This document shows, piece after piece, positions 39,334 to 62,479 of a DNA stretch of 64,000 nt (the stretch's first letter is position 1; each line of letters starts with the position of its first letter). Made by a program: the position numbers and the translations under genes. The notes under the pieces were generated by a model that was not told the origin of the DNA, made no database searches, and was given only the letters and a program-made list of their open reading frames with translations. The DNA is from Mycobacteriales bacterium. Lineage in GTDB: Bacteria; Actinomycetota; Actinomycetes; Mycobacteriales; QHCD01. The stretch lies in assembly GCA_040414495.1 (NCBI GenBank), contig JBEDUI010000054.1, forward strand, positions 15,253-79,252, given 5' to 3'.

Positions 39334-39347
39334 CAGCCCAAGGACCT
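39334..39347. promoter_or_regulatory. DevR/DosR-like box (minus-strand reading AGGTCCTTGGGCTG)
   Basis: GGWCCTT core. 122-135 nt upstream of the CtpF-like ATPase start. Confidence 0.3.
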
Positions 39348-39468
39348 GACACGATTCGGGCCCGCCTCGGTCGGACCGGGCATAAGCCATCAGCCGGCGG
39401 GCCATTGGCCTCTATATCAGCGCGGCCGATCGACCGACGGTGGACGGTGACACCAGGGAGCGTCACCA

Positions 39469-42198
39469 GTGCATGCGGATGGCAATACGCTTACGGCCGA
39501 CAAGGCCCCCAGCCCGGGACTGGATCCGCGGGAGCCGCTGTCGCTGCTGTGGCGCCATCTTCGCGCAACCGGCGCTGGCTTGACCAGCCGCGAAGCCGAT
39601 CGCCGGCTTGTCGCGTTTGGACCGAATGAGCTGTCGCGACGGCGCCGACGCCGTTGGCCGCGGGAATTGCTGAATCAATTCATCCATCCGTTGGCGTTGC
39701 TGTTAATTGTGGCGGCGGCCTTGGCCTGGATCGCGGGAACCCCTTTGCTGACCGGCGCGATTCTCGTGGTCGTTCTGCTCAACGCCGCGTTCGCGTTTAT
39801 CCAGGAACAACAGGCCGAGCGCGCGGTCGAGGCGCTCAGCGCATATCTTCCGCTCACCGCGCATGTGCTCCGCGATGGTCATGTGCAAGCGGTGCCGGCG
39901 CGCACGCTCGTACCCGGAGATGTCCTCCTGATCGAGGAAGGCGACCGGATTTGTGCCGACGCCCGATTGATCGACGGCGAGCTCGAGGTGGATCTGTCAA
40001 TGCTGACCGGTGAGTCGCTGCCCGCGTCCCGGTCGGCCGAATTCCTCGATACCGATCGTCCCGTGATTGATTCCCGCGACCTGATCTTCAGCGGTACCAG
40101 CGCTACAGCAGGCGAAGCGCGGGCGATCGTCACCGCGACGGGAATGCACACCGAAATAGGTCGAATAGCCGCGCTGTCGGAACGAACGACACAAGCCGAC
40201 AGCCCGTTGGAGCGGCAGGTCAAACGGGTCGCGTGGCTGATCGCGTTGGTAGCGGTGTGCGCCGGGCTGGTTTTCATGCCGGTCGGAGTTTTGGCTGGAC
40301 TGGCCTGGTCGGCCGCGGCAACGTTCGCGATCGGGCTCATCGTCGCCAACGTGCCCGAAGGACTGCTGCCCACGATCACACTCGCGCTCGCGATCGGCGT
40401 ACGCGATATGGCCCGACGGGGCGCGGTCGTGAAACGACTGTCCGCTGTGGAGACACTCGGCTCGACGACGGTCATCTGCACCGACAAGACCGGCACACTC
40501 ACGGAGAATTGGATGCGGGTCACCACGGTGTGGCTGCCCGACCGGGAGGTCTCGATCGAGAACCTCGAGGTCGCCCCCACCGCCGCGCTGCAACGGATCG
40601 CCCGGGCCGCGGCCCTGTGTACCAGCGCCCAACCGGCCATAGCCGATCAGCCGGCGACCGGCGATCCGACCGAGCTGGCGCTGCTTGACCTTGCGGCCCG
40701 GGTCGGCGTGCCGATCAGCGACCAGGGTCGGCAGCGTAACCGGCGTGCCATATTTCACTTCGACCCGCACGTCAAATGTATGTCCACAGTAGACGAGTTG
40801 CCCGATGGGCAATATGTACACACCAAGGGCGCACCCGAGACCGTTATCGGCTACTGCACCTCAATCGCCGGACACGGATCGATCGACGCCGCCGATCGAC
40901 ACCGCCTGGCGAGCATTGTGGACGACTACGCGACGCGGGGCCTGCGACTGCTGGCCGTGGCCACGCGAAAGCTGCCGGCATCACCCTCGCTGAGCCGCTC
41001 GGAGATCGAACGAGAGCTGTGCCTACTGGGCCTCATCGCAATGTTCGACCCGCCGCGGCCCGGTGTCGCCGAGGCGGTCGCGCAGGCCCATACCGCCGGC
41101 ATTCGAATCCACGTGGTCACCGGCGACAATGGACTCACCGCCGCCGAAGTAGCCCGCAGAGTTGGCATCGGCACGGCTGGTACGGAAATCATCACCGGTT
41201 CGCAATTGGATGCGATGGCCGAGCCCGCGCTCGACGACACTCTCCTGAGCGGGCGGGAGATTATCTTCGCGCGCAGCTCACCGGAGGCAAAGCTGCGTAT
41301 CGCGGATGCGCTGCGTGCTCGTGGTCAGGTGGTCGCGATGACCGGCGACGGGGTGAACGATGCGCCAGCGTTGCACCGGGCCGATATCGGCGTCGCGATG
41401 GGCCGTTCGGGAACCGACGTGGCGCGAGAGGCCGCCACAATGGTCCTGACCGATGATGACTTCGGGACGATCATCGCCGCGGTCGAAGCGGGGCGCCGCG
41501 TCTTCGACAATGTACGAAAATTCATTCTTTACATATTCACGCACGCGGTTCCCGAAGTGGCGCCGTTCCTGCTCTTTGCCCTCAGCGGCGGTCTGATCCC
41601 GCTGCCGTTGACCGTAATGCAAATTCTGGCCATCGACCTCGGCACCGATGTGCTTCCCGCGCTCGCGCTCAGCCGCGAGCCATCCGAACCGGGTTTGATG
41701 CACCGCCCACCACACCGTCGCGGTGACAGCGTGGTCGATCGGAGCCTGCTGGGCCGGGCCTGGGGATTTCTCGGTCTGATTTCGGCCGTGCTCGTTATTG
41801 GCGTATTTCTGCTAGTGCTATGGCAGGGCGGTTGGCATCCCGGGGCGGCAACCGGCCGGCACAGCGAACTGCATCAGACTTATGTGGAGGCAAGCACCAC
41901 GGCGTGGCTGGGGCTTGTGTCATGCCAGATCGGCACCGCCTTCGCGGCCCGGACCGAACACGCATCGCTGCGCTCGATCGGGATAGCGAGCAATCCCTGG
42001 CTGCTGTACGGAATTGCCGTGGAGATCGCGTTCGCGTTGACGCTCGTCTACACGCCATTTCTGCAGTCCATTCTCGGCACAACGAGCTTGTCGCCAAGCC
42101 AACTGGCGCTGGTATTGCCCTTCCCGCTGGCGGTGTGGGGAGCTGATGAGATCCGCCGGGCGTGGTATCGCCGATCGTCAGGTGAGTTGACGGTGTAG
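39469..42198 (+). CDS. P-type cation-transporting ATPase (type IIA, CtpF-like)
   Basis: 909 aa. [25 protein letters not shown] start with AGGGAG RBS. Confidence 0.85.
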
Positions 42199-42301
42199 CG
42201 GGCGTGACGTGCGCATCGAAACGGGCCGCGCGATCACGGGATGGCACGGAGACCTCGATGCCTATTCCTGGACCGACACACCGAGCACTCTTCAGTCTCG
42301 C

Positions 42302-44183: not shown

Positions 44184-44197
44184 CCGTACAAGGACCG
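44184..44197. promoter_or_regulatory. DevR/DosR-like box (minus-strand reading CGGTCCTTGTACGG)
   Basis: GGWCCTT core. GTACAAGGACC is identical to 62426-62436. A second, Mtb-consensus-like box GGGCCAATAGTCAC lies at 44362-44375. Confidence 0.3.
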
Positions 44198-44423
44198 ATC
44201 GCCGACGCCGCAGACGTGGAATACGGCTGGCGTCGAGGAGAGTCCGTCCGCACGAGCGGCTTGGAGATGGGTGGTGTGCGGAACACCCGCAGCTTCCGCC
44301 CCTTATCTTTCCGGCTCTCCTCGACAATTCAAGTAGATGCCGGTCCGCGACCATCGTGGTAGGGCCAATAGTCACTAGCGCAGTCATACGACACCAACGC
44401 ACGCCCGGTCGCGATCGCAGCTC

Positions 44424-44648
44424 CTATCTGGACCGAATGCGCGTTCGTACCGCACCATCTTCATGCGTCGAACGAACGCGAGCATCGGAGCCGGGAAAAA
44501 CCAGCGTCGTATCCCCGGTGTCAGACCACCGAACGACATAGGGCGGCTGCCCGCCTTTACCGTGGACTTCCAGGATTTCTCCATCGCGAATCGATCGCTG
44601 CAACCGGCTGGACATGATCAGCAGCTGATCACCAACTGTGGCGTACAT
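44424..44648 (-). CDS. DUF1918-domain protein (Rv0569-like)
   Basis: 74 aa. MYATVGDQLLI...RDGEILEVHGKGGQPPYVVRWSDTGDTTLVFPGSDA. Confidence 0.7.
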   Translation of the reverse strand: MYATVGDQLLIMSSRLQRSIRDGEILEVHGKGGQPPYVVRWSDTGDTTLVFPGSDARVRSTHEDGAVRTRIRSR

Positions 44649-44669
44649 TCTCAGCCCCTCCCTCGATCA

Positions 44670-46394
44670 TCAGATCTTCTCCGTTTGGTCGTGCCTACCG
44701 GCCTGCACCGTCCACCGCTGGTACGCCTCTACCGCAGTCGGCAAGGTCACGAAGATTCGATCGGCACCGATCTTGTCCGCCAGACCCGCAGCGGCCAGAT
44801 TGTCCCGTAATTCCTGCTTCACCCGCGCCATGGCAAACACAATGCCCCGGGTGTTCAGCTGACAGCGCAGTTTCTCCAACGCATCAACCGCAGTGATGTC
44901 GACCTCCACGTTCGCTTCCGCGTTGAGCAGGAACCAGCGCGGTGGGCACTTATCCACGGTCAGCGAAGCCAGCGCCCGGCGGCGGAAGTCTTCGGCGTTG
45001 GCGAAGCACAGTGGCGCGTCGTATCGATACACGATCAGCCCGGGGATAAGCGTTGCGTCGGCATAGTCGTCGATGTCATGCATGCCGGCCAAACCCGGAA
45101 CCTGCCCCAGAATCCCGTCGTGAGGCCGGGCCAGGCGTCGGAACAAGTCCAGAATGGACAGTCCAACCGCGACCAAGACGCCCTGCAGGACGCCGAGCCC
45201 GAGAACGGCTGCGGTCGTGGCCAATGCCAGCGCCAGCTCGCTACGGCGAAATGCGGCGAACCGCCGAAGCTCCGGTATGTCGATCAGCGTCAAAGCCGCG
45301 TAGACCACCAACGCGCCGAGCGCGGCGAGCGGAAACGCGGCGAGCAATGGGCGTGCGGCAAGCACTGTCACCAATACCGCCGCCAAACAAACCAGCGAGT
45401 ACAACTGCGTCCGGCTGCCAGTCGCCACACCGATCGCGGTCCGGCTCCCACTGCTGCTGATAGGGAAACCGTGTAGTGCACCGGCGGACCAGTTCGCAGC
45501 ACCCAATGCCAACAGTTCCTGGTTGGCGTCGATCGTTTCGCCTCTGCGATCGGCGAATGCGCGTGCGGTCAGAATGTCGTCGGAAAACCCGACAATAGCG
45601 ATGCCAATTGCCGGAAGGATGAGATGGCTGACGTCATGCAGGCTGAGGCCGTGCACAGATGGCCTCAGCACCCCCGCGGAAAAGTCACCGACAACCGCGA
45701 TTCCGTGGTTTTGTAACGAGAAGACGTAGACCACGAACGTGGCCAGCAACATTCCGATCAGCGGCCCCGGCACGTGCGGTTTCAACCGGGCCGCCAGCAG
45801 GAGAAAGGCGAGTACGCCGGCGGACAGCAATACGGTTGGCCAGTGCACCTGGTCCAGCTGGCTCAGGAAGGAACGGGCTTCGGGGACGAAGCTATCTCCG
45901 CGAACCGGCACCCCGGTAAGCTTTTTGAGCTGGCTGGTGATCATGATGACCGCCACGCCAGCCAGGTATCCGGTCAGTACCGGCTTGGACAACAGGTCGG
46001 AGAGAAATCCCAGCCGTGCCAGCCATCCGAGCACGCAGACTCCCCCAACCAGCAGCGCCAGCACGACAGCAAGCGACTCGTAACGCGCCGAGTCACCGGC
46101 CGCGAGCGGACCGAGCGCGACCGCGGTGAGCAGCGCCGTGGTCGACTCCGGACCGATCGAGACCTGCCGGGATGAACCAAGTAACGCGTAGATCGCGAGC
46201 GGACCGATTGCCGCCCACAAACCGGTGGCAGGCGGTAGTCCGGCAACGCCGGCATATGCCATCACCTGCGGGATGAGATACGTCGCGACGGTAACGCCGG
46301 CGATGACATCACCACGTAGCCACTCGCGCTTGTAGTGCCGGAGAACCCCTATTCCCGGTGCTCGCGGGACAACACCGTGCAGTACGGATGACAT
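44670..46394 (-). CDS. SulP-family anion transporter with C-terminal STAS domain
   Basis: 574 aa. Multi-TM core plus STAS (LNAEANVEVDITAVDALEKL). Confidence 0.85.
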   Translation of the reverse strand: MSSVLHGVVPRAPGIGVLRHYKREWLRGDVIAGVTVATYLIPQVMAYAGVAGLPPATGLWAAIGPLAIYALLGSSRQVSIGPESTTALLTAVALGPLAAGDSARYESLAVVLALLVGGVCVLGWLARLGFLSDLLSKPVLTGYLAGVAVIMITSQLKKLTGVPVRGDSFVPEARSFLSQLDQVHWPTVLLSAGVLAFLLLAARLKPHVPGPLIGMLLATFVVYVFSLQNHGIAVVGDFSAGVLRPSVHGLSLHDVSHLILPAIGIAIVGFSDDILTARAFADRRGETIDANQELLALGAANWSAGALHGFPISSSGSRTAIGVATGSRTQLYSLVCLAAVLVTVLAARPLLAAFPLAALGALVVYAALTLIDIPELRRFAAFRRSELALALATTAAVLGLGVLQGVLVAVGLSILDLFRRLARPHDGILGQVPGLAGMHDIDDYADATLIPGLIVYRYDAPLCFANAEDFRRRALASLTVDKCPPRWFLLNAEANVEVDITAVDALEKLRCQLNTRGIVFAMARVKQELRDNLAAAGLADKIGADRIFVTLPTAVEAYQRWTVQAGRHDQTEKI

Positions 46395-46412
46395 GCCATA
46401 CTCCCGGGCCGC

Positions 46413-47330
46413 CTATCCAACACCTCGGGCGTGCTCGCTCATTGGTTGATCGGGCCCTTTCACCACGGTGACCGGGCAATAGGCCTGGTGCAGAACACTT
46501 TGGCTGACTGAGCCGAGGAACAGTCCGATTCGCCCGCCCCGCCCGCGCGAGCCAACAACCAGCATCGGTGCGCCGAGCGATTGATGGATCAAGGCCGTGT
46601 CGGCCTCACCTTTCGGCAGTTTCTTGACGACTGGCACCGCGGGATATTTCTCGGTAAATCCGGACACATATTGCTCGAGCCACTGTTCCTGCTCGGCCGG
46701 CGGTCCCAGCTTGATCGATTCAGCGTATCCAGGCCTGCGATATACCGCCTCCCAGCAATGCACGATCACGACCGGGAGATCGCGCAATGACGCCTCGTCA
46801 AACGCGTATCCCAGCGCCTGTTCGGATGCGGCCGAGCCGTCGACACCGACCACAACGCCGGTTCCGGGAATGGGCTCGCACCGGTATGGTCGCGCCACCA
46901 TCAGCGGGCACCGGCAATGCGCGATCAGACCGGAGCCCACTGCCCCGAGCAGAGCGGAGACCGTCGCTCCGTGCCCCCGCGTACCAATGATCATCAGGCT
47001 GGCGTCATAGGACTGATCAACCAGGACGCTGCGGGGGTGACCGTTTATCGTGATTCCACTCACCCGATTGGGACCGATTTGCTCGCCGGCCAAGGCGATC
47101 GCGTTTCCGACGAGTTCCTCGCAGTTGTATTGCGGCACCGATTCGGTCGGTAGTGGATACGCTGCCGTCGCCGGAACGACGTGTGCCCGATGGTCGCAGG
47201 CGTGGACAATTCCCAGCGAACGTTGCCGCAGCGTCGCCTGCTCGATGCCGTGACGCAAGGCCAGTTGGCTCATCGGAGTTTCGTCGATGCCGACGACGAT
47301 CGGGTGCACCGCGTAGTCGATCATTCCCAT
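46413..47330 (-). CDS. universal stress protein (tandem Usp domains)
   Basis: 305 aa. Two Usp repeats (IVVGIDETPMS..., VVVGVDGSAASE..., VVGSRGRGG). Confidence 0.85.
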   Translation of the reverse strand: MGMIDYAVHPIVVGIDETPMSQLALRHGIEQATLRQRSLGIVHACDHRAHVVPATAAYPLPTESVPQYNCEELVGNAIALAGEQIGPNRVSGITINGHPRSVLVDQSYDASLMIIGTRGHGATVSALLGAVGSGLIAHCRCPLMVARPYRCEPIPGTGVVVGVDGSAASEQALGYAFDEASLRDLPVVIVHCWEAVYRRPGYAESIKLGPPAEQEQWLEQYVSGFTEKYPAVPVVKKLPKGEADTALIHQSLGAPMLVVGSRGRGGRIGLFLGSVSQSVLHQAYCPVTVVKGPDQPMSEHARGVG

Positions 47331-48535: not shown

Positions 48536-48558
48536 CTCGTCTTACCTATCGGAACCGA

Positions 48559-49614
48559 CTACGGTGCTCGCGAATACCCGAGATACGGCCTGACCGGGGC
48601 CTGGCTGCACAGCACTTCATGGACCGCACGACGCGGTGTCAACGCCGGTTCCGGTCCCGGCCCGGGCCATCCGATCCGCAACAGAATCTGCGGCGTTCCC
48701 ACACCGCCCAAAACTCGGCGCATCAACGACTGCGGTCCGGGAACCTCCAGCGGCTGCGTATACGGCGAAGCGCTCAGCCCCAATTCCGTTGCCTCAACCA
48801 GGACTCGGCCCAGCGCTTCCCCGGCCACCAGCCGGTCCAAGCGACTGTCGCTACCCGTGCCGATCACCAGCATCAAAGGCCGCTCGATCTGCACGGGCGA
48901 GGGAACCGTCATCGTTCCAGGCAAATCGCGCAACGGCACATCACAGCGCCGATCTGGCAGATCGGGCACAGCCGAAACCGGGATGCCGTCGGGCGAATCA
49001 TCAGCTCGACCCGACCATCGCTTCAACTCCCGCGCATAGGACGGGTCGGCCGCCTCGATCTCGTTGGCCCGACCCGCGGCCACGGCCAGGATCAACCGGT
49101 CTTCCCGACGGCGCACCTGGTGTGCGAAAACGCGCTGCTCATGGGCGACTGCCTGCAGACGCGCCACTATTTCCGGTTCGACCGGACGGTCGGCGAATGG
49201 CCGGCGGTCCGTACGCCGCCGCCGCGCCGCCGCCGCCAGATGCAGCGATTCCTCCGAGACGGCAGCCCGTCCGCTGACCAGAATCGTCGCCAAATGATCG
49301 TCATTCAGTGGATTCGGCTGCCGGGTGACCGTCGTACGCCATCCGGCCGCCGCCAGCGCCAGCTGGGCCAGATACAGCGCGGCCCCGCAGCTGATCAACA
49401 ACGCCCGACTACCCGGATCGGCGACCCGCAGTTGCCGCGATCGGTCGGCATACAGATCGATGGCGCCCAGCCGCAGATCGCCAATGCCGGAATGCTCGTC
49501 GATCCGCCACCACCAGGGCTGCGTGTTGTGAATGGAGGGAGCACGAATTGCCAGTTCCACGGCGCTGGTCAGCACCCCGAGTCCCGGCTGTGCATCCGAC
49601 ATCGCGGTAGTCAT
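48559..49614 (-). CDS. Acg-family nitroreductase-like FMN-binding protein
   Basis: AIRAPSIHNTQPWWWRI. Start set at MTTAMSD (AGGAGG upstream). The track start 49629 is an alternative. Confidence 0.8.
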   Translation of the reverse strand: MTTAMSDAQPGLGVLTSAVELAIRAPSIHNTQPWWWRIDEHSGIGDLRLGAIDLYADRSRQLRVADPGSRALLISCGAALYLAQLALAAAGWRTTVTRQPNPLNDDHLATILVSGRAAVSEESLHLAAAARRRRTDRRPFADRPVEPEIVARLQAVAHEQRVFAHQVRRREDRLILAVAAGRANEIEAADPSYARELKRWSGRADDSPDGIPVSAVPDLPDRRCDVPLRDLPGTMTVPSPVQIERPLMLVIGTGSDSRLDRLVAGEALGRVLVEATELGLSASPYTQPLEVPGPQSLMRRVLGGVGTPQILLRIGWPGPGPEPALTPRRAVHEVLCSQAPVRPYLGYSRAP

Positions 49615-52116: not shown

Positions 52117-54765
52117 ATGTCCCAGGCGACCGAGTCCGTACGTGCGCTACTCGTCGACGGTGAGCAGATTGAGTTGCGTCCGGCCACTCACTCCGACGAA
52201 TACGCGCTTATCCGACTTCACGACGAGCTTTCCGAGCGCAGCGTATATCTCCGGTTCTTCACAACAAATCATGCCGCGGGCGCGGATTTCGTCCATCGAG
52301 TACTCCAGCTGGAATCCCCGTCCGGCTATTGTCTGGTGGCCGTTCTGGCCGGCGAGATCGTCGGCATGGTGTCGTACCAGACCTTGGATACCCCAGAACG
52401 CGCCGAGGTCGCGCTGAGCGTCGCCGACCGTTGCCAGTCCCGTGGTGTTGGGACGCTGCTGTTGGAGCACGTGGTTTCGTATGCGCGACAGCACGGCATC
52501 AATGCCTTCCATGCCGAAGTCCTGGCCGAGAATTCGCGCATGCTGAGGGTGTTCTTCGATATCGGGCTGACTCCGACGACGAGGCGGGTCGACGGCACGT
52601 TGCAGGTCGAAATCCCGCTGCGATACGACGAAAGCTATCTTGACGCGGTCACCGTTCGCGAACGTCGGGCCGATGTGGCGAGCCTGACGCCGTTGCTCGA
52701 GCCGACGTCCGTTGCGGTGATCGGGGTCAGCCATCGAGGCGCTGGCGCCGGGTACGCCGTGCTGACGCATTTGCTGGAATCCGGCTTTCATGGCCCGATC
52801 CATCCGGTGAATCCGCACGCGACGCAGATCGCCGGGCTGCGGGTCTACCCCTCGGTGAGCGAGATACCAGAACCGCCAGAGCTGGCGGTGTTGGCCGTTC
52901 CGGCCGCGCAGGTGCCGGATGTAGCTGAGCAATGTGGACGGTGCGGGGTCAGGGCGCTGGTGGTGCTTTCCTCTGGATTGACCACCGCGGCCGGCCGCCG
53001 CCTGATCGACATCGTGCACCAGTTCGGTATGCGCATGGTCGGGCCGAACTGCATCGGGCTGGCCAATACCGAACCGACCGTTGCGCTTGACGCCTCATTT
53101 ACCCGGCACACCGCGAGCCCGGGCCATGTCGGCATCGTGACCCAGTCCGGCGGTATTGGTATCGCGTTACTGGAGTCCTTGGCCCAGGCCGGATTGGGCG
53201 TATCGACGTTTGTGTCCACAGGCGACAAGTACGACGTCAGCAGCAACGATATGTTGCTCTGGTGGGGGCAGGACGAGCGGACCAAGGTTGGCGTGGTTTA
53301 CGTCGAATCCTTCGGCAACCCGCGGAAATTCTCCCGGCTGGCCCGGCAGTTGGCCTCGCGTACACCAGTTGTCGCGGTCCGGGCGGCAGCGTCGGCGGCG
53401 GCCCAGAAAGCAGCGCAATCGCACACCGCCGCCAGCGCCACTCCCGCGGTCACCCGGGATGCGCTGTTCCGCCAGGCTGGAGTCATCCCGACCGACGATC
53501 TACAAGAGACGGTCGACGTCGTCGCACTGCTGAGCTGCCAACCGATCCCCGACGGATCGCGGGTTGCCATCATCAGCAATGCCGGCGGCGGTGGCGTTCT
53601 GGCCGCCGATGCCTGTGAGCGGTACGGCCTGCAAATAGCGACGATCTCGAACCGTGATGCCTTGAGCGCATTGCTGGGGAAGGGAACCGCCGCAAGCGTG
53701 GTGAACCCGATTGACACCAGCGCCGGCGTAAGCCCGGATATCTTCGCCGACTGTATTGTCGCGGCCGCCGCTGACCCCAACGTCGACGCCGTCCTGGCGA
53801 TCATCGCACCAACCGCGTTGGGCGACCTTCGGGGTGCTCTCGATGTCGCGGCCGCCAAGTGCAGCAAACCGTTGGTGGGCGCGGTATTCGGCCAGCCTGA
53901 CACCGTCCACATCAGCCTCCGATCGGTGCCGGTTTACGGCGATCCGGCGACGGCATTGCGCGCCCTCGGTCACGCCGCCAGTTACGCCGCATGGCGTCGG
54001 CGCCCGAGCGGAACGATCCCCCAGCCGAGGGGCATCCGGCCGGATGAGGCGGCAGCCGCGGTCATGCGGTATCTCACCGAGCACCCGTCCGGCGGCTGGC
54101 TGGACTGGGCGACTCTGGGCGATATCGCGCAGGCTTACGGAATTCCGCTGCCGCAGTCCGTGGTCGTGACCGACGCCGCCAGCGCCCAGAGCGCACTGTC
54201 CCAAGTGGATGGACCAGTGGCGATGAAGGCCCTGGTGGACGACTTGGTGCACCGTACCGAGGAACATGCCCTGGAACTGGGGGTCGAGACAGGCGATCAG
54301 GCCCGGGCAATTTACGAGCGAATGAGCCGCCGGTACGGCTCAAAGCTGCGGGGTGTCCTGGTGCAACACATGGCCAGCGCGGGTCAGGAGTTTCTTATTG
54401 GGGTGGTGCAGGACAGTGCGTTTGGTCCGCTAGTGCAGATCGGCGCCGGCGGTACCGCGACGGAACTGTTGCAGGATCGGGCCACCCGGCTGCTGCCGCT
54501 GACTGACATCGACGCCACGCAAATGCTGCAATCGCTGCACGTCGCGCCGCTGCTGGCCGGTTTTCGGGGCTCCTCACCACTGGACTCCGCCGGATTGCTC
54601 GACCTTGTGCATCGGGTGGCGCGGCTGGCCGAGGACCTCCCGCAGGTGGTCGAACTCGACCTCAACCCGGTGATCGTGCGGCCCCGGGATTGCGTGGTGG
54701 TCGATATGAAGGTCCGGGTGGCGCCGGCGCACACAGCCGATCCATTTCTGCGTCGGCTGCGTTGA
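52117..54765 (+). CDS. GNAT acetyltransferase fused to ADP-forming acyl-CoA synthetase-like domains
   Basis: 882 aa. N-terminal GNAT (CQSRGVGTLLLEH), CoA-binding/succinyl-CoA-ligase-like middle, ATP-grasp C-terminus. Confidence 0.8.
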   Translation: MSQATESVRALLVDGEQIELRPATHSDEYALIRLHDELSERSVYLRFFTTNHAAGADFVHRVLQLESPSGYCLVAVLAGEIVGMVSYQTLDTPERAEVALSVADRCQSRGVGTLLLEHVVSYARQHGINAFHAEVLAENSRMLRVFFDIGLTPTTRRVDGTLQVEIPLRYDESYLDAVTVRERRADVASLTPLLEPTSVAVIGVSHRGAGAGYAVLTHLLESGFHGPIHPVNPHATQIAGLRVYPSVSEIPEPPELAVLAVPAAQVPDVAEQCGRCGVRALVVLSSGLTTAAGRRLIDIVHQFGMRMVGPNCIGLANTEPTVALDASFTRHTASPGHVGIVTQSGGIGIALLESLAQAGLGVSTFVSTGDKYDVSSNDMLLWWGQDERTKVGVVYVESFGNPRKFSRLARQLASRTPVVAVRAAASAAAQKAAQSHTAASATPAVTRDALFRQAGVIPTDDLQETVDVVALLSCQPIPDGSRVAIISNAGGGGVLAADACERYGLQIATISNRDALSALLGKGTAASVVNPIDTSAGVSPDIFADCIVAAAADPNVDAVLAIIAPTALGDLRGALDVAAAKCSKPLVGAVFGQPDTVHISLRSVPVYGDPATALRALGHAASYAAWRRRPSGTIPQPRGIRPDEAAAAVMRYLTEHPSGGWLDWATLGDIAQAYGIPLPQSVVVTDAASAQSALSQVDGPVAMKALVDDLVHRTEEHALELGVETGDQARAIYERMSRRYGSKLRGVLVQHMASAGQEFLIGVVQDSAFGPLVQIGAGGTATELLQDRATRLLPLTDIDATQMLQSLHVAPLLAGFRGSSPLDSAGLLDLVHRVARLAEDLPQVVELDLNPVIVRPRDCVVVDMKVRVAPAHTADPFLRRLR

Positions 54766-54768
54766 GCC

Positions 54769-55767
54769 ATGATGTTTTTCCCGGCCGCCGAGGACGAGTG
54801 GGACGACAAACCGTTCTCACCCGAGGATGTGGCAGTGCTGTTACGGGCGGCGTCGGCAGCGCCTTCTCTGTATAACAGCCAGCCGTGGCGTTTTACGGTC
54901 GTTGATCGCGAGATTGGCGTATTCGCCGATCCGGAGCGCGTCAGTCCCGTGGCCGATCCGGATGGCCGGCAACAAATCATCGCCTGTGCCGCCGCGGTAT
55001 TGAACCTGCGGCTAGCCGTTCGGCATTTGGGTTATCAGCCTCTGGTGTCGCTGTGGCCCAGCCGCGATGATCCCGGTCATCTGGCCACCATACGGCGGGG
55101 TCCCTCAACTGACAGCGGTGTCGCCGAACGTCGGCTCTATGCGCAGATACAGGCCCGGCATACCCATCGGCAGCGTCTGGACGAACGCCCGATATATCCG
55201 GCCGCACGGCAAGCCGTTCGATATGCCGCCGCTATTGAAGGCGCATGGCTGCGTCCCATTGCCGCCGCGGACGAGGTGCGGGACACCATCGATCTGACGA
55301 TTCGCGCCATACGTACGCAGCAATCCGACCCGCGGATTAATGCAGAAATGTGGCACTGGCTCAGCACTGATGCCGGGCCGCAGGGTATGCCGCTCGCGGC
55401 CTGGCGCGGTGCCGCATTTCCGGTACCTGGGTTGGATCAACGGCTCGAGGGTGACTGGCACGATGAGGTGGCCCGCCAGCTGAGCACGTATCCATTCTTT
55501 GTCTTGGCGACGCCGCACGACACCGCGACCGATTGGCTCGTGGCCGGTCAGGCCCTGCAGCGGGCGTTGTTGACCGCCACGGAATTCTATATTGCCGCTT
55601 CCTTTTTCAATCAGATCGTGGAGGTCCCAGCCTTGCGGGTCGAACTGGCCGAGCGGCTTTCGCTCAGCGCGTGTCCACAAATGATTCTTCGGCTGGGCTA
55701 CCGGGTTGCCGGCGTCGACCCGGCAACGATCAACGGTCGTAGGGACCTCTCGGACGTCATTTCCTAA
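54769..55767 (+). CDS. Acg-family nitroreductase-like FMN-binding protein, paralog 2
   Basis: 332 aa. AASAAPSLYNSQPWRFTV. Confidence 0.8.
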   Translation: MMFFPAAEDEWDDKPFSPEDVAVLLRAASAAPSLYNSQPWRFTVVDREIGVFADPERVSPVADPDGRQQIIACAAAVLNLRLAVRHLGYQPLVSLWPSRDDPGHLATIRRGPSTDSGVAERRLYAQIQARHTHRQRLDERPIYPAARQAVRYAAAIEGAWLRPIAAADEVRDTIDLTIRAIRTQQSDPRINAEMWHWLSTDAGPQGMPLAAWRGAAFPVPGLDQRLEGDWHDEVARQLSTYPFFVLATPHDTATDWLVAGQALQRALLTATEFYIAASFFNQIVEVPALRVELAERLSLSACPQMILRLGYRVAGVDPATINGRRDLSDVIS

Positions 55768-55798: not shown

Positions 55799-56674
55799 TT
55801 ACCGGGCGACCGCTACCGGGCAATGCGCCAGTGCCAGCACATGCTGGCTGACCGATCCGAGTAGCAGGCCGGCGAACCCGCCCCGCCCGCGGGATCCCAC
55901 CACGATAAGGGAAGCCGAACGCGCCTTGTCGACCAGCACCCGCCCGGATGCGCCACGGACGATCTCTCGACACACCGGCACCTCGGGATATTTCTCAGCC
56001 CAGGGATCAACGATGGCGTTCATGGTCTCGACTACGGCTAATTGTGCCGCCGAATCGGGTCGGGTCATGACCTGCATGCCATGTCCCGGAAGCATTGGCG
56101 GAACGGTGAATGCGTGTATTACCTGCAGGGGCAGGTCCAGCCGCCTCGCGGTTTCGAACGCGAAAGCCAATACCTTGTCCGCGTGTTCGGAGTTATCGAC
56201 GCCGGCAATGATGGGTCCATCGACGGGAAATCCATCGGTCCGGGTCACCACGACCGGGCCGGACGCGTGTGCCGCCACCTGGGTGCTGGTCGCCCCGACC
56301 ATCAGCCGCTGCATCCGCCCCGACCCGTGGGCGCCCACCACAAGCAGATCGTGCGGCCCGGCAAAGCGGATCAACTGCTCGGCCGGCTGGCCCGAAACGA
56401 GCTCCGGTACCACGCGCAGCCGTGGATACCTTGACCACACGCGGTCGCGCGAATGCCATAAAACCTGCTCGCCACGGGCTCGCAGCTCGGCGGACAGGAT
56501 CGGCTCGGTGGGCAACCAGAATGCGCGATCGGACGGCATGACGAGGCAGAGAAAGAGAATGCGATCCAGCTCGGCGGCACTGCGGGCCGCCCAATCCACG
56601 GCCGACAGGCTGGCCTCGGAACCATCAACTCCTACCAATACCGCGGCATCCGACGGCGTGTGCTGCTCGGACAT
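55799..56674 (-). CDS. universal stress protein (tandem Usp domains)
   Basis: 291 aa. RBS AAGGAGG. VLVGVDGSEAS and IIAGVDNSEHA repeats. Confidence 0.85.
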   Translation of the reverse strand: MSEQHTPSDAAVLVGVDGSEASLSAVDWAARSAAELDRILFLCLVMPSDRAFWLPTEPILSAELRARGEQVLWHSRDRVWSRYPRLRVVPELVSGQPAEQLIRFAGPHDLLVVGAHGSGRMQRLMVGATSTQVAAHASGPVVVTRTDGFPVDGPIIAGVDNSEHADKVLAFAFETARRLDLPLQVIHAFTVPPMLPGHGMQVMTRPDSAAQLAVVETMNAIVDPWAEKYPEVPVCREIVRGASGRVLVDKARSASLIVVGSRGRGGFAGLLLGSVSQHVLALAHCPVAVAR

Positions 56675-56742: not shown

Positions 56743-56771
56743 ATGTCCTTTCGCGCTGGGACTTTCGAACC
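56743..56771. promoter_or_regulatory. adjacent DevR/DosR-like boxes ATGTCCTTTCGCGC and GGGACTTTCGAACC in the usp/DUF1876 divergent promoter
   Basis: The second box plus its GAA flank (56758-56774) matches the recalled 17-nt core-plus-flank GGGACTWWAGTCCCSAA at 14/17 positions. Confidence 0.35.
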
Positions 56772-56891
56772 GAACATTCCGCCAAACGCGGCTGGATTGT
56801 TACGGGACTCAGCGAGTGACCAAGGTACCTACCGGCCCAGCCGGCTGCGCGTAATCGTTGCTGTGAAGGTGAATTGGTCGGGAGGTTGGCG

Positions 56892-57146
56892 ATGACGCAC
56901 GTACGAAAGTGGACAGTCGATGTGTTTCTGTTCGAGGACAATGACAAGACAACGGCCAATGCCGAACTGAAGACAGAAGCTGGGAACGTGGTGCGCGGCG
57001 TCGGAACAGCCCATCGCAGCGGCTCGGACCCCGTGGTGCCCGAGATCGGCGCCGAGTTCGCCGCAGGTCGGGCGCTACGTGATCTGGCGCGCAAGCTGAT
57101 GGGTTTTGGTGTCGATGATCTGCAGAGCGTCATCAAACGGCCGTGA
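56892..57146 (+). CDS. DUF1876-domain protein (Rv1738-like)
   Basis: Start set at ATG 56892 (GGGAGG 6 nt upstream). MTHVRKWTVDVFLFEDNDKTTANAELKT...PEIGAEFAAGRALRDLA. Confidence 0.7.
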   Translation: MTHVRKWTVDVFLFEDNDKTTANAELKTEAGNVVRGVGTAHRSGSDPVVPEIGAEFAAGRALRDLARKLMGFGVDDLQSVIKRP

Positions 57147-57158: not shown

Positions 57159-58496
57159 TCAGTCGCGTCCCGCCTGAGCCGGGACAAAGTGGACGGTGAA
57201 CCAGTCCACCGCCAACCAGGACACAGCTTCCAGCGCACCCGGCTCCTCAAACAGATGCGTCGCCTCCGGCACGATCTCGAGCCGGTTTTCGCACCGCAGA
57301 TGGCTCTTCGCTATCCGGTTGAGGTGCAGCACCACCTCGTCGGCACCTCCGACAATAAGCAACGTGGGAGCGCGCACCAGCGCCAGCCGGGGTATCGCAA
57401 GATCGGGCCGACCACCACGGGAAACGACCGCCGCGACCGGGCTGTCCGGTGCGCCGGCCGCCCAGAGCGCCGCCGCCGCGCCGGTACTTGCGCCGAAATA
57501 GCCAATCGGCAACTGGCTGGTCTCCGGCGCGGTACGCAGCCAATTGGTGACATCGGTCAGCCGGTTGGCCAAGAGCCGTATATCGAACACATTGCCACGG
57601 TCGGTTTCCTCCTCGACCGTGAGCAGGTCGACCAGCAAGGTTCCCAATTCATTGGCGTTCAACGCCGCCGCCACATGCCTGTTTCGTGGACTATGCCGCG
57701 AACTGCCGCTGCCATGGGCAAACAGCACCAAGCCGCGCGCCCGCTCCGGCACGTGCAGATGCCCGGCCAACCGGGTCGTGCCGGACGGGATCGAGACATC
57801 GTCATCGCGGTGCTGGGGCCCGACGTCGACCACCGGCTGCTCGACCGGATGCTGTCGCTCGCGCGCCCCGGCCCGCTCCAACAATTCCGTTACGCGCTCG
57901 TCCGGCACCTGATCGAAATGCCGATAAAACTCACCTACGGCGAAAAAGCGGGCCGATTCACGCAGGCATATAACGTCATCAGCGTCGGCTCGCACTACCT
58001 CGCCCAATCCGGCTGGAGCGACCGGAGTCGCGAGCACAATGCGGTTTGCGCCTCTGGCCCGCACGGCCTGGCAGGCGGCACGGGCGGTCGCTCCGGTGGC
58101 GATTCCGTCGTCAACCACAATCGCGGTCCGGCCGTCCAACCGCACCGATGCGCGGCCAGCGCGGAAACGTCGTGCCTGACGTTCGAGCGTTATGCGCTCC
58201 CGATCGGTAATTGCGGCAATATGCTCAGCATCGATCCTGGCCTGCTGAACGACCCGATCGTTGAGCACCCGTACGCCGCCTTCGCCGATCGCGCCCAATC
58301 CCAACTCATGTTGGAAGGGCACACCCAGCTTGCGTACCACGGTGATATCCAGCGGCAAGCCGAGCTTCAGGGCAACCTCGTACGCCACCGGCACACCGCC
58401 GCGGGGCAGTCCGATCACGACCGCGTCGCCGAAATGGTGCTGTTGCAGCTCGGCGGCGAGGCGACGCCCGGCCTGTACCCGATCGCTGAATCGCAT
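57159..58496 (-). CDS. phosphoribosyltransferase fused to dienelactone-hydrolase-like alpha/beta hydrolase (Rv0571c-like)
   Basis: MRFSDRVQAGRRLA... PRT motif IVVDDGIATGAT. C-terminal DLH-like half. GTG 58508 is an alternative start. Confidence 0.8.
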   Translation of the reverse strand: MRFSDRVQAGRRLAAELQQHHFGDAVVIGLPRGGVPVAYEVALKLGLPLDITVVRKLGVPFQHELGLGAIGEGGVRVLNDRVVQQARIDAEHIAAITDRERITLERQARRFRAGRASVRLDGRTAIVVDDGIATGATARAACQAVRARGANRIVLATPVAPAGLGEVVRADADDVICLRESARFFAVGEFYRHFDQVPDERVTELLERAGARERQHPVEQPVVDVGPQHRDDDVSIPSGTTRLAGHLHVPERARGLVLFAHGSGSSRHSPRNRHVAAALNANELGTLLVDLLTVEEETDRGNVFDIRLLANRLTDVTNWLRTAPETSQLPIGYFGASTGAAAALWAAGAPDSPVAAVVSRGGRPDLAIPRLALVRAPTLLIVGGADEVVLHLNRIAKSHLRCENRLEIVPEATHLFEEPGALEAVSWLAVDWFTVHFVPAQAGRD

Positions 58497-58780
58497 GAGC
58501 GGCCTCACAACTGCTGTGTCCTCCGACCTCCCGGTGCGGTCGTCTGATCGCGTCGTTGCACCACAAAGTCCACATAGGATTTTTCGTAGCTGAAATGGCG
58601 CATTCGGGCTCCTCTCGCCGACGGGGCAAGCAGGTAGGTTCAGACAATCTCGCCCACGCTCCGATGGGCAGAGTCTTTAGCCCTCGCTTCAACGGCAAAG
58701 GGCTGGAATTGCCCTGCATCCCCAGCTATCACGTTTTCTGGCATCCAACCCACGTCGGGTACGAAATCCGCGGCAACGTT

Positions 58781-58794
58781 GGGACCTTCGCCTC
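58781..58794. promoter_or_regulatory. DevR/DosR-like box GGGACCTTCGCCTC
   Basis: GGACCTTCGCCTC is identical to 62467-62479. 106-119 nt upstream of the CBS-BON start. Confidence 0.35.
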
Positions 58795-58899: not shown

Positions 58900-59577
58900 A
58901 TGAGACAGGTAACCGCTGGTGATGTCATGACTCGATCGGTGGTGACGAGTCGAGTCGACGAGCCGCTGAAAATAGCCGTAAGCAGGATGATCGACAACAG
59001 GGTCGGCCTATTGCCGGTGACCGACGACGCCCGGCATGTCCTGGGCGTGCTCTCCGAGAGCGACGTCATCCGTAAGCAGGAAAGCCCGACCGGGTCTGAG
59101 CAAGGTCGCGGGCGGTGGCTACGCCGTTTTCCCGAGCGCCAGGTTCGCGGCTCAACGACGGGCGAGATCATGACCACTCCCACCTATACGGTCGAGGAGT
59201 CCACGACCCTGCCCGAGGCCGCGCGGATCATGGATCAGTACGCCATCACCCACCTACCGGTGCTCGACAGCGAGAACCGGTTGATCGGGATCGTGGCTCG
59301 CGCCGACCTGCTGAGCGTTTATCTCAAGAGCGACCAGGAGATTCATGACGCGATTTATCGCGACATCATCGACGAGACCATGATGCTCGACCGGACATCG
59401 GTCACGGTCGCCGTGGAGAACGGAGTCGTCACATTGGCCGGTCGGTTGGAGAGTAGAAATCTCGTTCCGATACTCGTCCAATTCGTCTCGATGCTCGACG
59501 GGGTCGTCGGTGTCAAAAACCACCTGACGTATCGAGAAGACACCGTGGGTCTCCTGCAACAACCGCCCGGCGGCTAA
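58900..59577 (+). CDS. CBS-pair + BON domain protein (Hrp1/Rv2626c-like CBS module)
   Basis: 225 aa. Two CBS motifs, then BON (VTVAVENGVVTLAGRLES...VVGVKNHL). Confidence 0.8.
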   Translation: MRQVTAGDVMTRSVVTSRVDEPLKIAVSRMIDNRVGLLPVTDDARHVLGVLSESDVIRKQESPTGSEQGRGRWLRRFPERQVRGSTTGEIMTTPTYTVEESTTLPEAARIMDQYAITHLPVLDSENRLIGIVARADLLSVYLKSDQEIHDAIYRDIIDETMMLDRTSVTVAVENGVVTLAGRLESRNLVPILVQFVSMLDGVVGVKNHLTYREDTVGLLQQPPGG

Positions 59578-59585
59578 TACGCCGG

Positions 59586-60383
59586 TCAACGATCGAGGGC
59601 GGCTCTGATCAGCCCGTAATGTCCGTCGTACCGGTGGTAGAGCACGCTGGCATGTTCGTCCGCACTGTCCACAAAGAACACGAACGGTAACCCGGCCAGC
59701 TCGAGCCGATCTTTCGCCTCGGCAACGGTGAGCCGTGCCGCAGGTTGCGGGCTCACGGTGATCCGACCCGACGGGTGCCGCGTCGGCGACACCACGGCGG
59801 CAAGGCGATAACCGGTCTCCCCCGACCGGTAGATCACCGATTCCAATCCGGTGTCGACGTCGGTGAACAGATAGAAGTCATAGTCCATCAGGTCCATTTC
59901 GGTGGCGGCGTCCGTGCACGACTCGGGTGTGAGCGCCAGCGATTTACGCCGCACAATTCGGCGCTCCCCAAAAGGCCTCGGGAAATACCCGGGTCGGCGC
60001 GTCGGCTCCTGGCCGTGCCGCCACTCGTGCTCCTCGCTCTTGGGCATGCCACCGCGGCGGGCCTCCCAGTGCCGGGCGAGCCGATCCAGCCGGCGGGATA
60101 ACCGCTCCCGCAACAGGTCGATTGCCTGAGTCATCGTGGGCGCCGCGACCTGCGCGCGTACCAAACGACCATCAAGGTCCAGGTTGGCCTGGGCTATTGC
60201 CGGTCGACTCACTGCCGGGTTCGCCGACTCGGTCAGCTTGGCGCGCGCGAAAAGGATCGGCTCATGGGCGTGATTGGCCAATGCCACAATCCGGGAACGC
60301 ACGTATTCGGGCATGTTTGGGCGCACCTGGCCACGAACCACGACCGCCACATCGGGCATCGGCTGACTCGTACGTTGTCGCAT
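59586..60383 (-). CDS. long hibernation-promoting-factor-like protein (Rv0079-like, S30AE + sigma-54-modulation C-terminal domain)
   Basis: 265 aa. RBS GAGGAGG 7 nt before ATG 60383. Lies 12 nt downstream of ftsH. Confidence 0.8.
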   Translation of the reverse strand: MRQRTSQPMPDVAVVVRGQVRPNMPEYVRSRIVALANHAHEPILFARAKLTESANPAVSRPAIAQANLDLDGRLVRAQVAAPTMTQAIDLLRERLSRRLDRLARHWEARRGGMPKSEEHEWRHGQEPTRRPGYFPRPFGERRIVRRKSLALTPESCTDAATEMDLMDYDFYLFTDVDTGLESVIYRSGETGYRLAAVVSPTRHPSGRITVSPQPAARLTVAEAKDRLELAGLPFVFFVDSADEHASVLYHRYDGHYGLIRAALDR

Positions 60384-60395
60384 TGTCGAACCTCC

Positions 60396-62360
60396 TCACC
60401 CTGAGGTGACTGGCGAGAGCGGCTTGGCTGGCCCACCGTGCACGACTTCGAGCACGACCGACCCGTCGATGGTTTCGTGATAAACGAGGAGGGCCGAAAG
60501 CCGATCCAATGCGTCGCGATGCTCCCGCAACATATCGACCGCCCGCTGCTCCGCCTCTCGCAAAAGCCGCGACACTTCCTCGTCCACGATGCGTTGGGTC
60601 TGCTCGGAGTACGGCCGGCGCACCTGGTCGGCCGCGCTTTCACCGAGGAACTGCGGCTCGCCGGTTCCGTACCCGACCGGACCGACCACTGTGGACAGAC
60701 CGAATTCACGTACCATTCGTGTCGCCACCTGCGTCGCACCGGACAGGTCGTTGGCGGCCCCGGTCGACGCCTCGCCGAATACCACCAGCTCCGCCGCCCG
60801 ACCGCCCAACCGCACGGTCAGCAGATCGGTCAGATAGCCCTCGCTGTACAAATGCCGCTCCGCCTCCGGTAATTGTTCGGTCGAACCGAGCGCCATTCCG
60901 GAGGGCAGGATCGTCACCTTCGCCACCGGGTCGGCGTGCTCGCACAACGCGGCCAGCAACGCGTGCCCGGACTCGTGCACCGCGACCGCATGCCGCTCCT
61001 CGGGCAGCAACGCGTTCGAGGTTTCGCGACGGCCCAGCAGAACCCGGTCGCGGGCGGCGTCGAGATCCTCGCGGGTCAGCAGAGTACGGCCGGCGCGTAC
61101 GGCGTTGATGGCCGCCTCGTTCAGCAGGTTGGCCAGATCCGCGCCGGAAAACCCCGGGGTCGCGCGGGCGGTCACGTCCAGATCGACGTCCTCGGCGAGT
61201 TGCTTGCCCAGCGCGTGCACTTCAAGAATCGCCGCCCGCTCGGCCTGATTCGGCAGCGGCACCACGACCTGCCGGTCGAACCGGCCCGGTCGCAGCAGCG
61301 CCGGATCCAGCGTCTCCGGCCGGTTGGTGGCGGCCAGCACCACGATCCCGCTGCTCTGGTCGAAGCCGTCCAATTCGGCCAGCAACTGGTTGAGCGTCTG
61401 CTCGCGTTCCTCGTGCCCGCCCTGCGCCATTCCGCGGCGACCGCCGATCGCATCCAATTCGTCGATAAAGATGATCGCCGGCGCGCGCTTGCGGGCTTCC
61501 TCGAACAGGTCGCGAACCCGGGAAGCGCCTACACCGACGAACATTTCCACGAACGCCGATCCGGTCACCGAGAGAAATGGCACTTCTGCTTCACCGGCTA
61601 CCGCGCGGGCGAGCAGCGTCTTGCCGGTTCCCGGCGGCCCGACCATGATCACCCCGCGCGGTCCCTTGGCACCAGCGACGACGTACCGGCCCGGATGGCG
61701 CAGGAAATCCACGACCTCGCTGATTTCCTGTTTCACACCGTCATATCCGGCCACATTGGCAAAACGCGTATCGGGCCGGACAGACTCGATGATTTTCGCC
61801 TTGGATCGGCCGAATCCGCTCATTCCGCCGGCCAGCGACCGTTGAGCGCGCCCGCCAATCCAGATAAAGAAACCCACCAGGATCAGGAATGGCAGAAACG
61901 CCAGCAGGGCCGACAGCCAGGCGCTGCCGCTGCTGCGGGTCGCGGTGATCGGCACCTGTTTGGTCCGCAACGCCTGCTGCAGCTGGGAAGTACCCAGCGC
62001 GGTGGGCAGTTGGCTGGTGAAACGCTCGCCGGTCTTCAGCTCACCGGTCACCGCGCCTTTGTCGTTGATCGACACCTCGGAAACGTTGCCCGCCTGAACC
62101 TTTGTGACCAGCGCGGTGTACGAGAGCGACGTCGTCTTATGCGTATTGCTCGACAGACTCGACACGACCAGCACCGCGACCGTTCCGGCGAGGAGAACCG
62201 CCCACAGAACCCATCGCCAGACCGGTGTTTTCGGCGGTGTTGCCGGTGGCGGCGGATCGCGTGGCGGGCCGGGCTTCGGGCTCACCGACAGGTGCCGGTT
62301 GGGCCACTGCGCGGCATTCAACATCCGGACCACAGCGCGTTCTCGCTTCTCATTCGGCAT
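60396..62360 (-). CDS. ftsH: ATP-dependent zinc metalloprotease FtsH
   Basis: 654 aa. Two N-terminal TMs, [26 protein letters not shown]. Confidence 0.85.
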
Positions 62361-62400
62361 TCCGTGTACTCAGTGTCAACGACCACTCGACCGGACGTCA

Positions 62401-62479
62401 GGGTCCTTGTGCCCTCGTTGCTGGGTACAAGGACCAACTGAGAGTCCTTCCGGCGCCCGGCGGCGAGGACCTTCGCCTC
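62401..62479. promoter_or_regulatory. array of four DevR/DosR-like boxes (GGGTCCTTGTGCCC, GGGTACAAGGACCA, GAGTCCTTCCGGCG, AGGACCTTCGCCTC)
   Basis: Box starts at 62401, 62423, 62442 and 62466. Located in the ftsH / 4Fe-4S-gene divergent promoter. Confidence 0.4.

Follow-up and report, generated by a model that had tools for sequence, protein, structure and literature searches.

The present analysis concerns a 64,000-nucleotide stretch (hereafter the window; positions 15,253 to 79,252 of contig JBEDUI010000054.1, assembly GCA_040414495.1) from a Mycobacteriales bacterium, in which the GGWCCTT cores recurring in the intergenic DNA of a ~25-kb dormancy island are very probably the better-conserved half-sites of ~18-bp pseudo-palindromic operators, predicted to be of the DevR/DosR family (NarL/LuxR type). 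A sequence-only reading of the same DNA had proposed a lineage-specific DevR/DosR-like operator, defined by a 14-mer with a GGWCCTT core and concentrated in the promoters of this island. The predicted presence of a DevR/DosR-type operator in these promoters was supported by four lines of evidence, namely a motif found de novo, a Dev-box layout, tandem pairs spaced by 22 bp, and a matrix derived from relatives. From 39.3 to 62.5 kb, eight promoter regions, five of them situated between clearly divergent genes, contain about 18 predicted boxes, and hardly a transcription unit from 35.6 to 64 kb lacks one upstream. What was directly observed comprises the motif with its enrichment and architecture, the genes around it and its conservation in relatives; the identity of the binding protein, activation over repression and the inducing signal are proposed by analogy with M. 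tuberculosis.

The window consists of actinobacterial DNA of 62-70% G+C, and its gene map, drawn from third-position G+C and then corrected by Pfam, left 5.3 kb of the 64 kb (~8%) as intergenic DNA, with the intergenic DNA of the island making up 2.9% of the window. On both strands, 19 GGWCCTT matches were found against an expectation of 10.33±3.08, a number reached in none of 100 shuffles. These are the 8 intergenic and 11 coding positions reported earlier, at offsets of 1-6 nt. Seven of them are strictly intergenic on the corrected map (23084, 39340, 44190, 58782, 62402, 62429 and 62467), whereas the eighth reported as such, 52045, overlaps the stop codon of the flavodoxin gene, 66 nt ahead of the next gene. 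The core density was ~1.5 per kb in intergenic and 0.19 per kb in coding DNA, in good agreement with the ~8-fold enrichment claimed before. Dinucleotide shuffles of the intergenic segments yielded 1.0±1.0 cores, and none of 1000 reached 6, a count made on the earlier gene map. Six cores fall within the 1.9 kb of island intergenic DNA, as against one in the ~3.4 kb of intergenic DNA elsewhere, and this sole exception, core 23084, adjoins a riboswitch. Of the island cores, 44190 precedes only an unannotated 62-aa open reading frame (ORF). The 11 cores within coding DNA gave no sign of function; one of them, 42863, lies within the first codons of a TetR gene. The GGWCC 5-mer by itself was at expectation across the window (200 vs 209±15), indicating that the signal resides in the longer word, and the same count ruled out a restriction-site origin of GGWCC. 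Exact 11- and 13-mers were shared between different promoters, and both of the longer repeats noted previously proved real, with GGACCTTCGCCTC at 58782 and 62467 and GTACAAGGACC at 44186 and 62425, one nucleotide off the position first given for the latter. A dispersed repeat (REP or MITE) was ruled out, as the similarity stops at 13-14 nt.

When 6- to 8-mers were compared between the island intergenic DNA and the rest of the window, GTCCTT, TCCTTGT and GTCCTTGT ranked at the top, the last with four copies in island intergenic DNA and none in the remainder of the window. Unbiased motif discovery by greedy site sampling on the corrected map recovered the motif at widths of 14, 16 and 18 nt, in the consensus forms GGACCTTGGGCCGT, GGGACCTTCGGCCGTAGC and TACGGCCGAAAGTCAC (GGGACCTTCGGCCGTA-type), with z scores of 2.5-3.9 against 20 shuffles each. 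The support given to the motif by the window alone is real, yet moderate. Alignment of 16 sites, partly picked by eye, gave GGGACCTTCGGCCC, position 3 being G and position 5 being C in all 16 sites, while the centre is TT in 14-15 of them and position 12 is C in 14. In the Dev-box numbering, the same sites carry C8, which becomes C7 when 18-mers are numbered, and G6 in 16/16, G5 in 11/16, G4 in 10/16, the WW centre in 14-15/16 and C15 in 14/16. The resulting window consensus of ~18 bp can be written (A/G)GGAC(C/T)TTnG(G/C)CC(G)TA, in which GGWCCTT occupies positions 2-8. The second half-site prefers GG(C/G)CCGTA, equivalent to TACGG(C/G)C on the opposite strand. The right half, described earlier as C-rich and poorly palindromic, is indeed degenerate, like the secondary boxes of M. 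tuberculosis, but it has a consensus of its own, GG(C/G)C(C)GTA. Likewise, GGWCCTT captured a real half-site, whereas as an operator definition it fails to catch roughly half of the good boxes. Several of these, at 39312, 44362, 49678 and 56758, read GTGACTTT or GGGACTTT and lack the strict core, and a further box without it, at 56816, was recovered by the scans. The looser relatives listed in the sequence-only reading were present as stated.

When each promoter region was held out in turn, a site with a rank of 2-29 out of ~64,000 positions was present in all 7 of the island regions tested. A pattern common to the M. tuberculosis box and the Streptomyces OsdR box, GGGNCNWWNGNCCC, allowing at most one mismatch, placed 6 of its 14 window matches in island intergenic DNA. 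The M. tuberculosis consensus GGGACTWWAGTCCC with up to three mismatches was not enriched window-wide, and a generic palindrome was not enriched across the window either (14 vs 13.6 expected; 5 vs 4.0); for both, only the positions of the matches were informative.

The best homologues of the Fer4 protein encoded at the right edge of the window are just 74% identical (Smaragdicoccus, Amycolatopsis, Nocardia and metagenome-assembled genomes (MAGs)), and in relatives this gene heads an operon for a group-3b [NiFe] hydrogenase (Hyh) that adjoins genes for universal stress proteins (USPs), a nitroreductase and DevRS. We used three loci in which hyh is surrounded by dormancy genes, namely L003, L005 and L006 (Nocardia sp. 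NBC_01730), together with a hyh operon of Smaragdicoccus without dormancy neighbours (L004) as a control. When the intergenic DNA of the first three was searched de novo, the window being excluded, CAGGGaCgaaGGTCCc emerged with z = 13.5. Applied to the window, this relatives' matrix placed 4 of its 9 matches of at least 9 bits, and 7 of its 31 matches of at least 7 bits, in island intergenic DNA. In the reverse direction, the top matches of the window matrix were intergenic in L003, L005 and L006, as opposed to only coding-region background in Smaragdicoccus. The distribution of the core followed the same line, since 9 of the 12 GGACCTT copies in the relatives were intergenic vs 0 of 1 in the control, and 3 of the 4 GGTCCTT copies in relatives carrying DevR were so as well. 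A survey of sequences upstream of Fer4 genes, covering the 69 of 80 fetched metagenomic loci with enough upstream sequence, revealed that actinobacterial homologues at least 60% identical tend to have a Dev-like box at -64 to -98 (upstream vs coding, p = 0.02), exemplified by CAGGGCCGAAAGTCAC at -78 with 18.5 bits; the box of the window lies at -70.5. No box enrichment was seen upstream of the homologues less than 60% identical.

In L003, devR and devS lie ~8 kb from the Fer4 gene. The product of this devR, which matched PDB 3C3W with E = 2.7e-77, is by sequence unambiguously a DevR orthologue, and it has the same recognition helix, LAEKTVKNYVS, as the M. tuberculosis protein. L006 encodes a DevS-type kinase, and in L005 the response-regulator gene is split, with the receiver and GerE halves called separately (1164-1427 and 667-1164), which may reflect a frameshift or an assembly error. 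Since two related MAGs and Nocardia sp. NBC_01730 likewise have GGACCTT as the conserved half-site, and the DevR helix of L003 is unchanged, the core cannot be called lineage-specific, and this part of the earlier proposal had to be given up.

The window boxes were then compared with the known systems. The Dev box of M. tuberculosis is 18-20 bp long (TTSGGGACTWWAGTCCCSAA) and takes the pseudo-palindromic form GGGAC(T)WW(A)GTCCC, with the key C invariant in 47 footprinted sites and G3-G5 conserved (PMC3177182). Its GGGACT is read by K179, K182 and N183 of DevR. Every promoter of that species contains two or more tandem boxes, which are in helical phase at a spacing of ~21 bp and lie 17-114 nt from the start codon; the secondary boxes are weak, cooperatively filled and often unrecognisable by sequence (PMC3177182), and the proximal one has its centre near -42/-43, where it overlaps the -35 region (PMC3177182; PMC13486717). 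The window boxes share with these sites the 18-20-bp pseudo-palindrome, the GGGAC half-site, C8 in every aligned site, the GG and the W-rich centre, as well as divergent promoters, a distance of up to ~115 nt from start codons and, at 39.3, 49.7 and 62.4 kb, tandem arrangement at about two helical turns. In three cases, the centres of adjacent boxes are separated by exactly 22 bp (39318.5/39340.5, 49684.5/49706.5 and 62407.5/62429.5), and the proximal boxes stand 42-112 nt upstream of start codons, which is compatible with the position of the M. tuberculosis boxes. They differ from the latter in that C (GGGACC) mostly takes the place of T at position 9, roughly one site in three has T at position 7, the second half reads GG(C/G)CCGTA instead of AGTCCCSAA, the spacing is 22 rather than 21 bp, and some promoters have a single recognisable box. 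Moreover, the M. tuberculosis sites were footprinted, whereas those of the window are predicted from sequence, and their regulator gene lies outside it. The Dev box and the DosR regulon promoters of M. tuberculosis are described in Park 2003, in Chauhan 2011 (PMC3177182) and in a DosR-RNAP cryo-EM study of 2026 (PMC13486717).

The OsdR/OsdK system of Streptomyces, in which an orthologous regulator outside the mycobacteria likewise governs a USP-rich island, has the OsdR consensus AGGGCCGATCGGCCCT in Streptomyces coelicolor (Urem 2016, PMC5069765), and judged by sequence the window consensus lies between this and the M. tuberculosis TTSGGGACTWWAGTCCCSAA. The GGGCC-type half-sites of the window boxes at 39399 and 44362 are OsdR-like; on the other hand, the OsdR centre is G/C-rich (GATC) and lacks the ACCTT signature that dominates in the window and its Nocardia-like relatives. 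As for the hydrogenase, Hyh (group 3b) belongs to the M. smegmatis dos regulon (PMC8125079), and the box ~70 nt before the Fer4 start, together with the Fer4-led hyh operons of the relatives, fits this known DosR dependence. The Fer4 intergenic region of the window also serves a divergent operon for an FtsH-like protease and a hibernation-promoting factor (HPF).

Considering that the essential bases are kept and that the layout is tandem and divergent, we read these sites as DevR/DosR boxes, most likely working as in M. tuberculosis. In such a scheme, a GAF-GAF haem kinase of the DevS/DosT type would phosphorylate DevR under hypoxia, nitric oxide or carbon monoxide, and dimers of phosphorylated DevR would occupy the best (primary) boxes. 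The bound dimers would cooperatively bring further dimers to weaker boxes about two helical turns (22 bp) away, and the promoter-proximal dimer may then touch sigma region 4 and the alpha subunit, turning on the flanking operons in both directions.

Several observations weigh against this interpretation. With regard to the motif, the window-only de novo statistics are moderate, as given above; a mixture-model expectation-maximisation search of the island intergenic DNA missed the motif and drifted to low-information ATCAGC-like patterns; and the greedy 14-nt search on the uncorrected map fell short of significance (z 0.4 and 2.0), the latter partly because 745 nt taken as intergenic contained the DUF1918 gene and a small ORF. 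As the aligned sites were partly picked by eye, neither the column invariance nor the hold-out test is fully independent. With regard to the sites, only one convincing box was found at 52.0 kb and at 58.8 kb, and two boxes at 56.7 kb are spaced by 15 bp, whereas the M. tuberculosis promoters always have properly phased pairs. A consensus promoter scan found no sigma-70-like promoter next to the boxes at 62.4 kb. The window boxes scored below the relatives' own sites on the relatives' matrix, and the A7→T sites with GGTCCTT (39334, 44184 and 62423) scored below zero. Finally, the 64-kb window contains no devR or devS gene (tblastn E > 0.5), and it encodes no response regulator or GAF kinase.

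The low scores of the GGTCCTT sites and the lack of a regulator gene in the window raise the alternative that the boxes are operators of a DevR paralogue or another NarL/LuxR-family regulator, replacing or joining the canonical DevR. This would apply especially to the A7→T subclass, GGTCCTTGT(A/G)CC, which comprises 39340, 44190 and the mirror pair 62402/62429 and is tight, GTCCTTGT being confined to island intergenic DNA as described above. A precedent for two copies exists in M. smegmatis, which holds one active and one inactive DosR (PMC13486717). We nevertheless consider this alternative unlikely, for the subclass retains the bases essential in M. tuberculosis (G5, G6 and C8) and sits exactly 22 bp from better boxes in the manner of secondary Dev boxes, relatives whose DevR helix is identical to that of M. 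tuberculosis also have intergenic GGTCCTT, and one regulator suffices for the simplest reading. Our preferred reading is that the GGTCCTT sites are ordinary secondary boxes. There is a similarly small chance that the GGTCCTTGT(A/G)CC subclass constitutes a second, lineage-restricted signal on the DosR regulon, in the form either of a binding site for a regulator, paralogous or co-evolved, whose specificity at position 7 has altered, or of a structured leader; if so, this apparently uncultured actinomycete would possess a two-input dormancy switch.

A structural reading of one part of the island appears still less probable. The divergent promoter between the FtsH-like and Fer4 genes contains a 13-bp inverted repeat, GGTCCTTGTGCCC-N9-GGGTACAAGGACC (62402-62435), whose arms pair over 13 positions across a 9-nt spacer, and which folds as RNA with -29.3 kcal/mol (z = -5.7), or -23.9 kcal/mol (z = -4.5) for the other strand. 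The segment 62401-62436 might accordingly be conceived as a single element, be it a leader hairpin of the FtsH-like or Fer4 transcript, a cruciform, or the palindromic operator of some other dimeric protein. However, any asymmetric box doubled head to head yields such a repeat automatically, the same core stands single and partnerless at 39340 and 44190, and the 22-bp spacing matches that of the other tandem pairs. The hairpin is followed by no T-tract and is hence not a terminator, and no relative carries the inverted repeat, neither the relatives' loci nor the metagenome collection, which contained no match to the exact pattern.

The weakest alternative, according to which the enrichment reflects composition or chance in AT-richer intergenic DNA that tolerates words disfavoured by codon usage, can point to the 11 coding cores without sign of function, to the generic palindrome at its expectation and to the non-significant de novo runs, but it is largely refuted and barely credible, given that the dinucleotide-preserving shuffles never attained the observed number, that the island intergenic DNA holds six cores and the longer intergenic remainder one, that a matrix built without the window locates the same regions, and that exact 11- and 13-mers recur across promoters.

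The individual predicted boxes and their putative targets, the latter identified by Pfam, are as follows (bit scores refer to the relatives' matrix unless otherwise noted). At 39.3 kb, a Dev-like box, GTGACTTTCGGCCG (16-mer TACGGCCGAAAGTCAC; 39312..39325, minus strand), ranked 2 among ~64,000 positions when held out, scored 7.0 bits and was found de novo; it is centred 42.5 nt ahead of the ABC ATPase start and 150 nt ahead of that of the P-type ATPase. The strict-core box AGGTCCTTGGGCTG (39334..39347, minus strand), 22 bp from it, had a held-out rank of 6 and -2.6 bits and looks like a secondary site, and the OsdR-like box GGGCCATTGGCCTC (39399..39412, plus strand), also found de novo, is centred 63.5 nt before the GTG at 39469. 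The presumed targets are an ABC ATPase plus FtsX permease unit (35640..39276, minus strand; boxes 39312 and 39334) and a P-type cation ATPase (39469..42198, plus strand). A leaderless transcript was considered for the ABC gene, whose ATG is 42.5 nt from the box centre, and was rejected, as no credible -10 element was discernible by eye. Beside a box at 39.3 kb lies the sequence CGGTATACGG (39305-39314), related to a perfect 12-nt palindrome, CCCGTATACGGG, which separates two of the 49.7-kb boxes (49691-49702); among the 8-mers of the island intergenic DNA, GTATACGG ranks with the most enriched.

No box was found at the divergent pair embedded in the island (42302-43924), which consists of the TetR gene (42302-42880, minus strand) and a Zn-dependent alcohol dehydrogenase/quinone oxidoreductase gene (start 42977, plus strand). 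The next region has the weak, low-confidence strict-core box CGGTCCTTGTACGG (44184..44197, minus strand; -12.3 bits), 33 nt before the ATG of the 62-aa ORF, and the box GTGACTATTGGCCC (16-mer TAGGGCCAATAGTCAC; 44362..44375, minus strand; 11.8 bits), flanked by the DUF1918 stop codon on one side and the small ORF on the other. A palindrome, TGATCAGCAGCTGATCA, is located at 44614-44630, at the 5' end of the DUF1918 gene (44424-44648, minus strand) and just past the SulP gene. Both genes belong to a putative operon (44424..49615, minus strand) for an Acg-type nitroreductase, an M50-CBS peptidase, a tandem USP, SulP/STAS and DUF1918. Its nitroreductase ATG at 49615 is preceded by the box GTGACTTTGGGCCA (49678..49691, minus strand; 11.1 bits), centred 69.5 nt away. 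The box GGGACATTCGTCGG (49700..49713, plus strand), found de novo, follows at 22 bp, and the box AGGACCAATGGCCG (49725..49738, plus strand; 8.7 bits) is centred 54.5 nt before the USP ATG at 49786.

The putative units on this side (49786..55767, plus strand) encode a USP, a DeoC aldolase and a flavodoxin and, after the strict-core box GGGACCTTAGCCCG (52044..52057, plus strand; 6.8 bits), a GNAT/ADP-forming acyl-CoA synthetase, whose start is 66.5 nt from the box, and a nitroreductase. A contig scan with this synthetase returned a single MAG locus (L001), 44% identical and uninformative. At 56.7 kb, the weak box ATGTCCTTTCGCGC (56743..56756, plus strand; 5.3 bits) lies 75.5 nt before the USP start at 56674 on the minus strand and at the atypical distance of 15 bp from GGGACTTTCGAACC (56758..56771, plus strand), which of all sites is nearest to the M. 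tuberculosis half-site, and GGTACCTTGGTCAC (56816..56829, minus strand; 9.5 bits), found de novo, is centred ~51 nt before the ATG at 56874. The presumed targets here are a tandem USP (55799..56674, minus strand) and an Rv2632c-like protein (56874..57146, plus strand; PF08962), for which an exact look-up gave no record.

Further along, the low-confidence candidate TGGACTTTGTGGTG (58559..58572, minus strand; 9.2 bits on the window matrix) lies 57 nt before the start, at 58508, of a putative target encoding a fusion of phosphoribosyltransferase (PRTase) and alpha/beta (dienelactone-type) hydrolase (57159..58508, minus strand), the domain order of which we take to be that of the M. tuberculosis DosR-regulon gene Rv0571c. 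A plus-strand ORF at 57189-58547 was dismissed as spurious, since its translation is not protein-like and the real gene is on the minus strand. The strict-core box GGGACCTTCGCCTC (58781..58794, plus strand; held-out rank 4) is situated between the fusion gene (minus strand) and a gene for a CBS-CBS-BON protein with an ATG at 58900 (58900..59577, plus strand), also a putative target. In the last region, the strict-core box GGGTCCTTGTGCCC (16-mer CAGGGTCCTTGTGCCC; 62401..62414, plus strand; 7.8 bits) is centred 47.5 nt before the ATG at 62360 of the putative operon for the FtsH-like protease and the HPF (S30AE; 59586..62360, minus strand), and its mirror copy TGGTCCTTGTACCC (62423..62436, minus strand), likewise with a strict core, forms with it the 13-bp inverted repeat at 22 bp. 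Beyond the weak, low-confidence box GAGTCCTTCCGGCG (62442..62455, plus strand; -11 bits) stands the best box, AGGACCTTCGCCTC (16-mer CAGAGGCGAAGGTCCT; 62466..62479, plus strand), which with 15.4 bits was the top window match of the relatives' matrix and is centred 70.5 nt before the ATG of the putative target encoding the Fer4 dicluster protein (62543..64000, plus strand); this start, 62543, was taken from an exact database match, and the unit runs off the window.

The units behind the eight regions thus include four USPs, two nitroreductases, the Rv2632c-like protein, the PRTase/hydrolase fusion, the P-type ATPase, the M50-CBS peptidase, HPF and Fer4. Most of the island targets are of DosR-regulon types: the USPs, Acg-type nitroreductases, Rv2632c-like protein, P-type ATPase, M50-CBS peptidase and an HPF (S30AE) of the Rv0079/DATIN kind are shared with M. 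tuberculosis, whose DosR regulon families are tabulated in PMC3177182 (Table 1). By sequence, the predicted DevR/DosR operator and regulon are extended to a further actinomycete lineage, with nearest relatives ~74% identical in a conserved protein. In addition, the GGGACC-TT-GGTCCC form of the box is common to Nocardia-like lineages and bridges the mycobacterial and Streptomyces consensus, and the view that DosR controls the fermentative hydrogenase Hyh in organisms other than M. smegmatis gains support. While our understanding of the DosR system is unchanged, the value of these data lies in annotation and comparison, including a list of candidate targets, among which are the FtsH-like/HPF operon, CBS-BON, the ABC/FtsX pair and the GNAT-acyl-CoA synthetase; none of these four is known as part of the classical M. 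tuberculosis regulon. The pairing of individual island genes with orthologues of that regulon is putative.

Outside the island, a full-length guanidine-III riboswitch (RF01763; 23090-23158, plus strand; 48.8 bits vs a gathering score of 36) adjoins core 23084 with its 5' end, and this core was rejected as a Dev box, being unrelated, riboswitch-adjacent and poor in box score. The riboswitch is followed by an ORF (23177-23422, plus strand) for a hydrophobic protein of 81 aa without a Pfam match, whereas the expected partner of a guanidine-III riboswitch is an SMR/Gdx exporter. Two overlapping ORFs (28410-29108 and 28820-29431) together make up a D-2-hydroxyacid dehydrogenase gene, the split being likely a frameshift, a pseudogene or an assembly error. 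Upstream of the island, two adjacent genes encode GAF-ANTAR proteins of the RNA-binding antiterminator type (30477-31935), and beside this pair lies the gene (32760-34469) of a long ECF sigma factor that contains DUF6596 and TPR domains.

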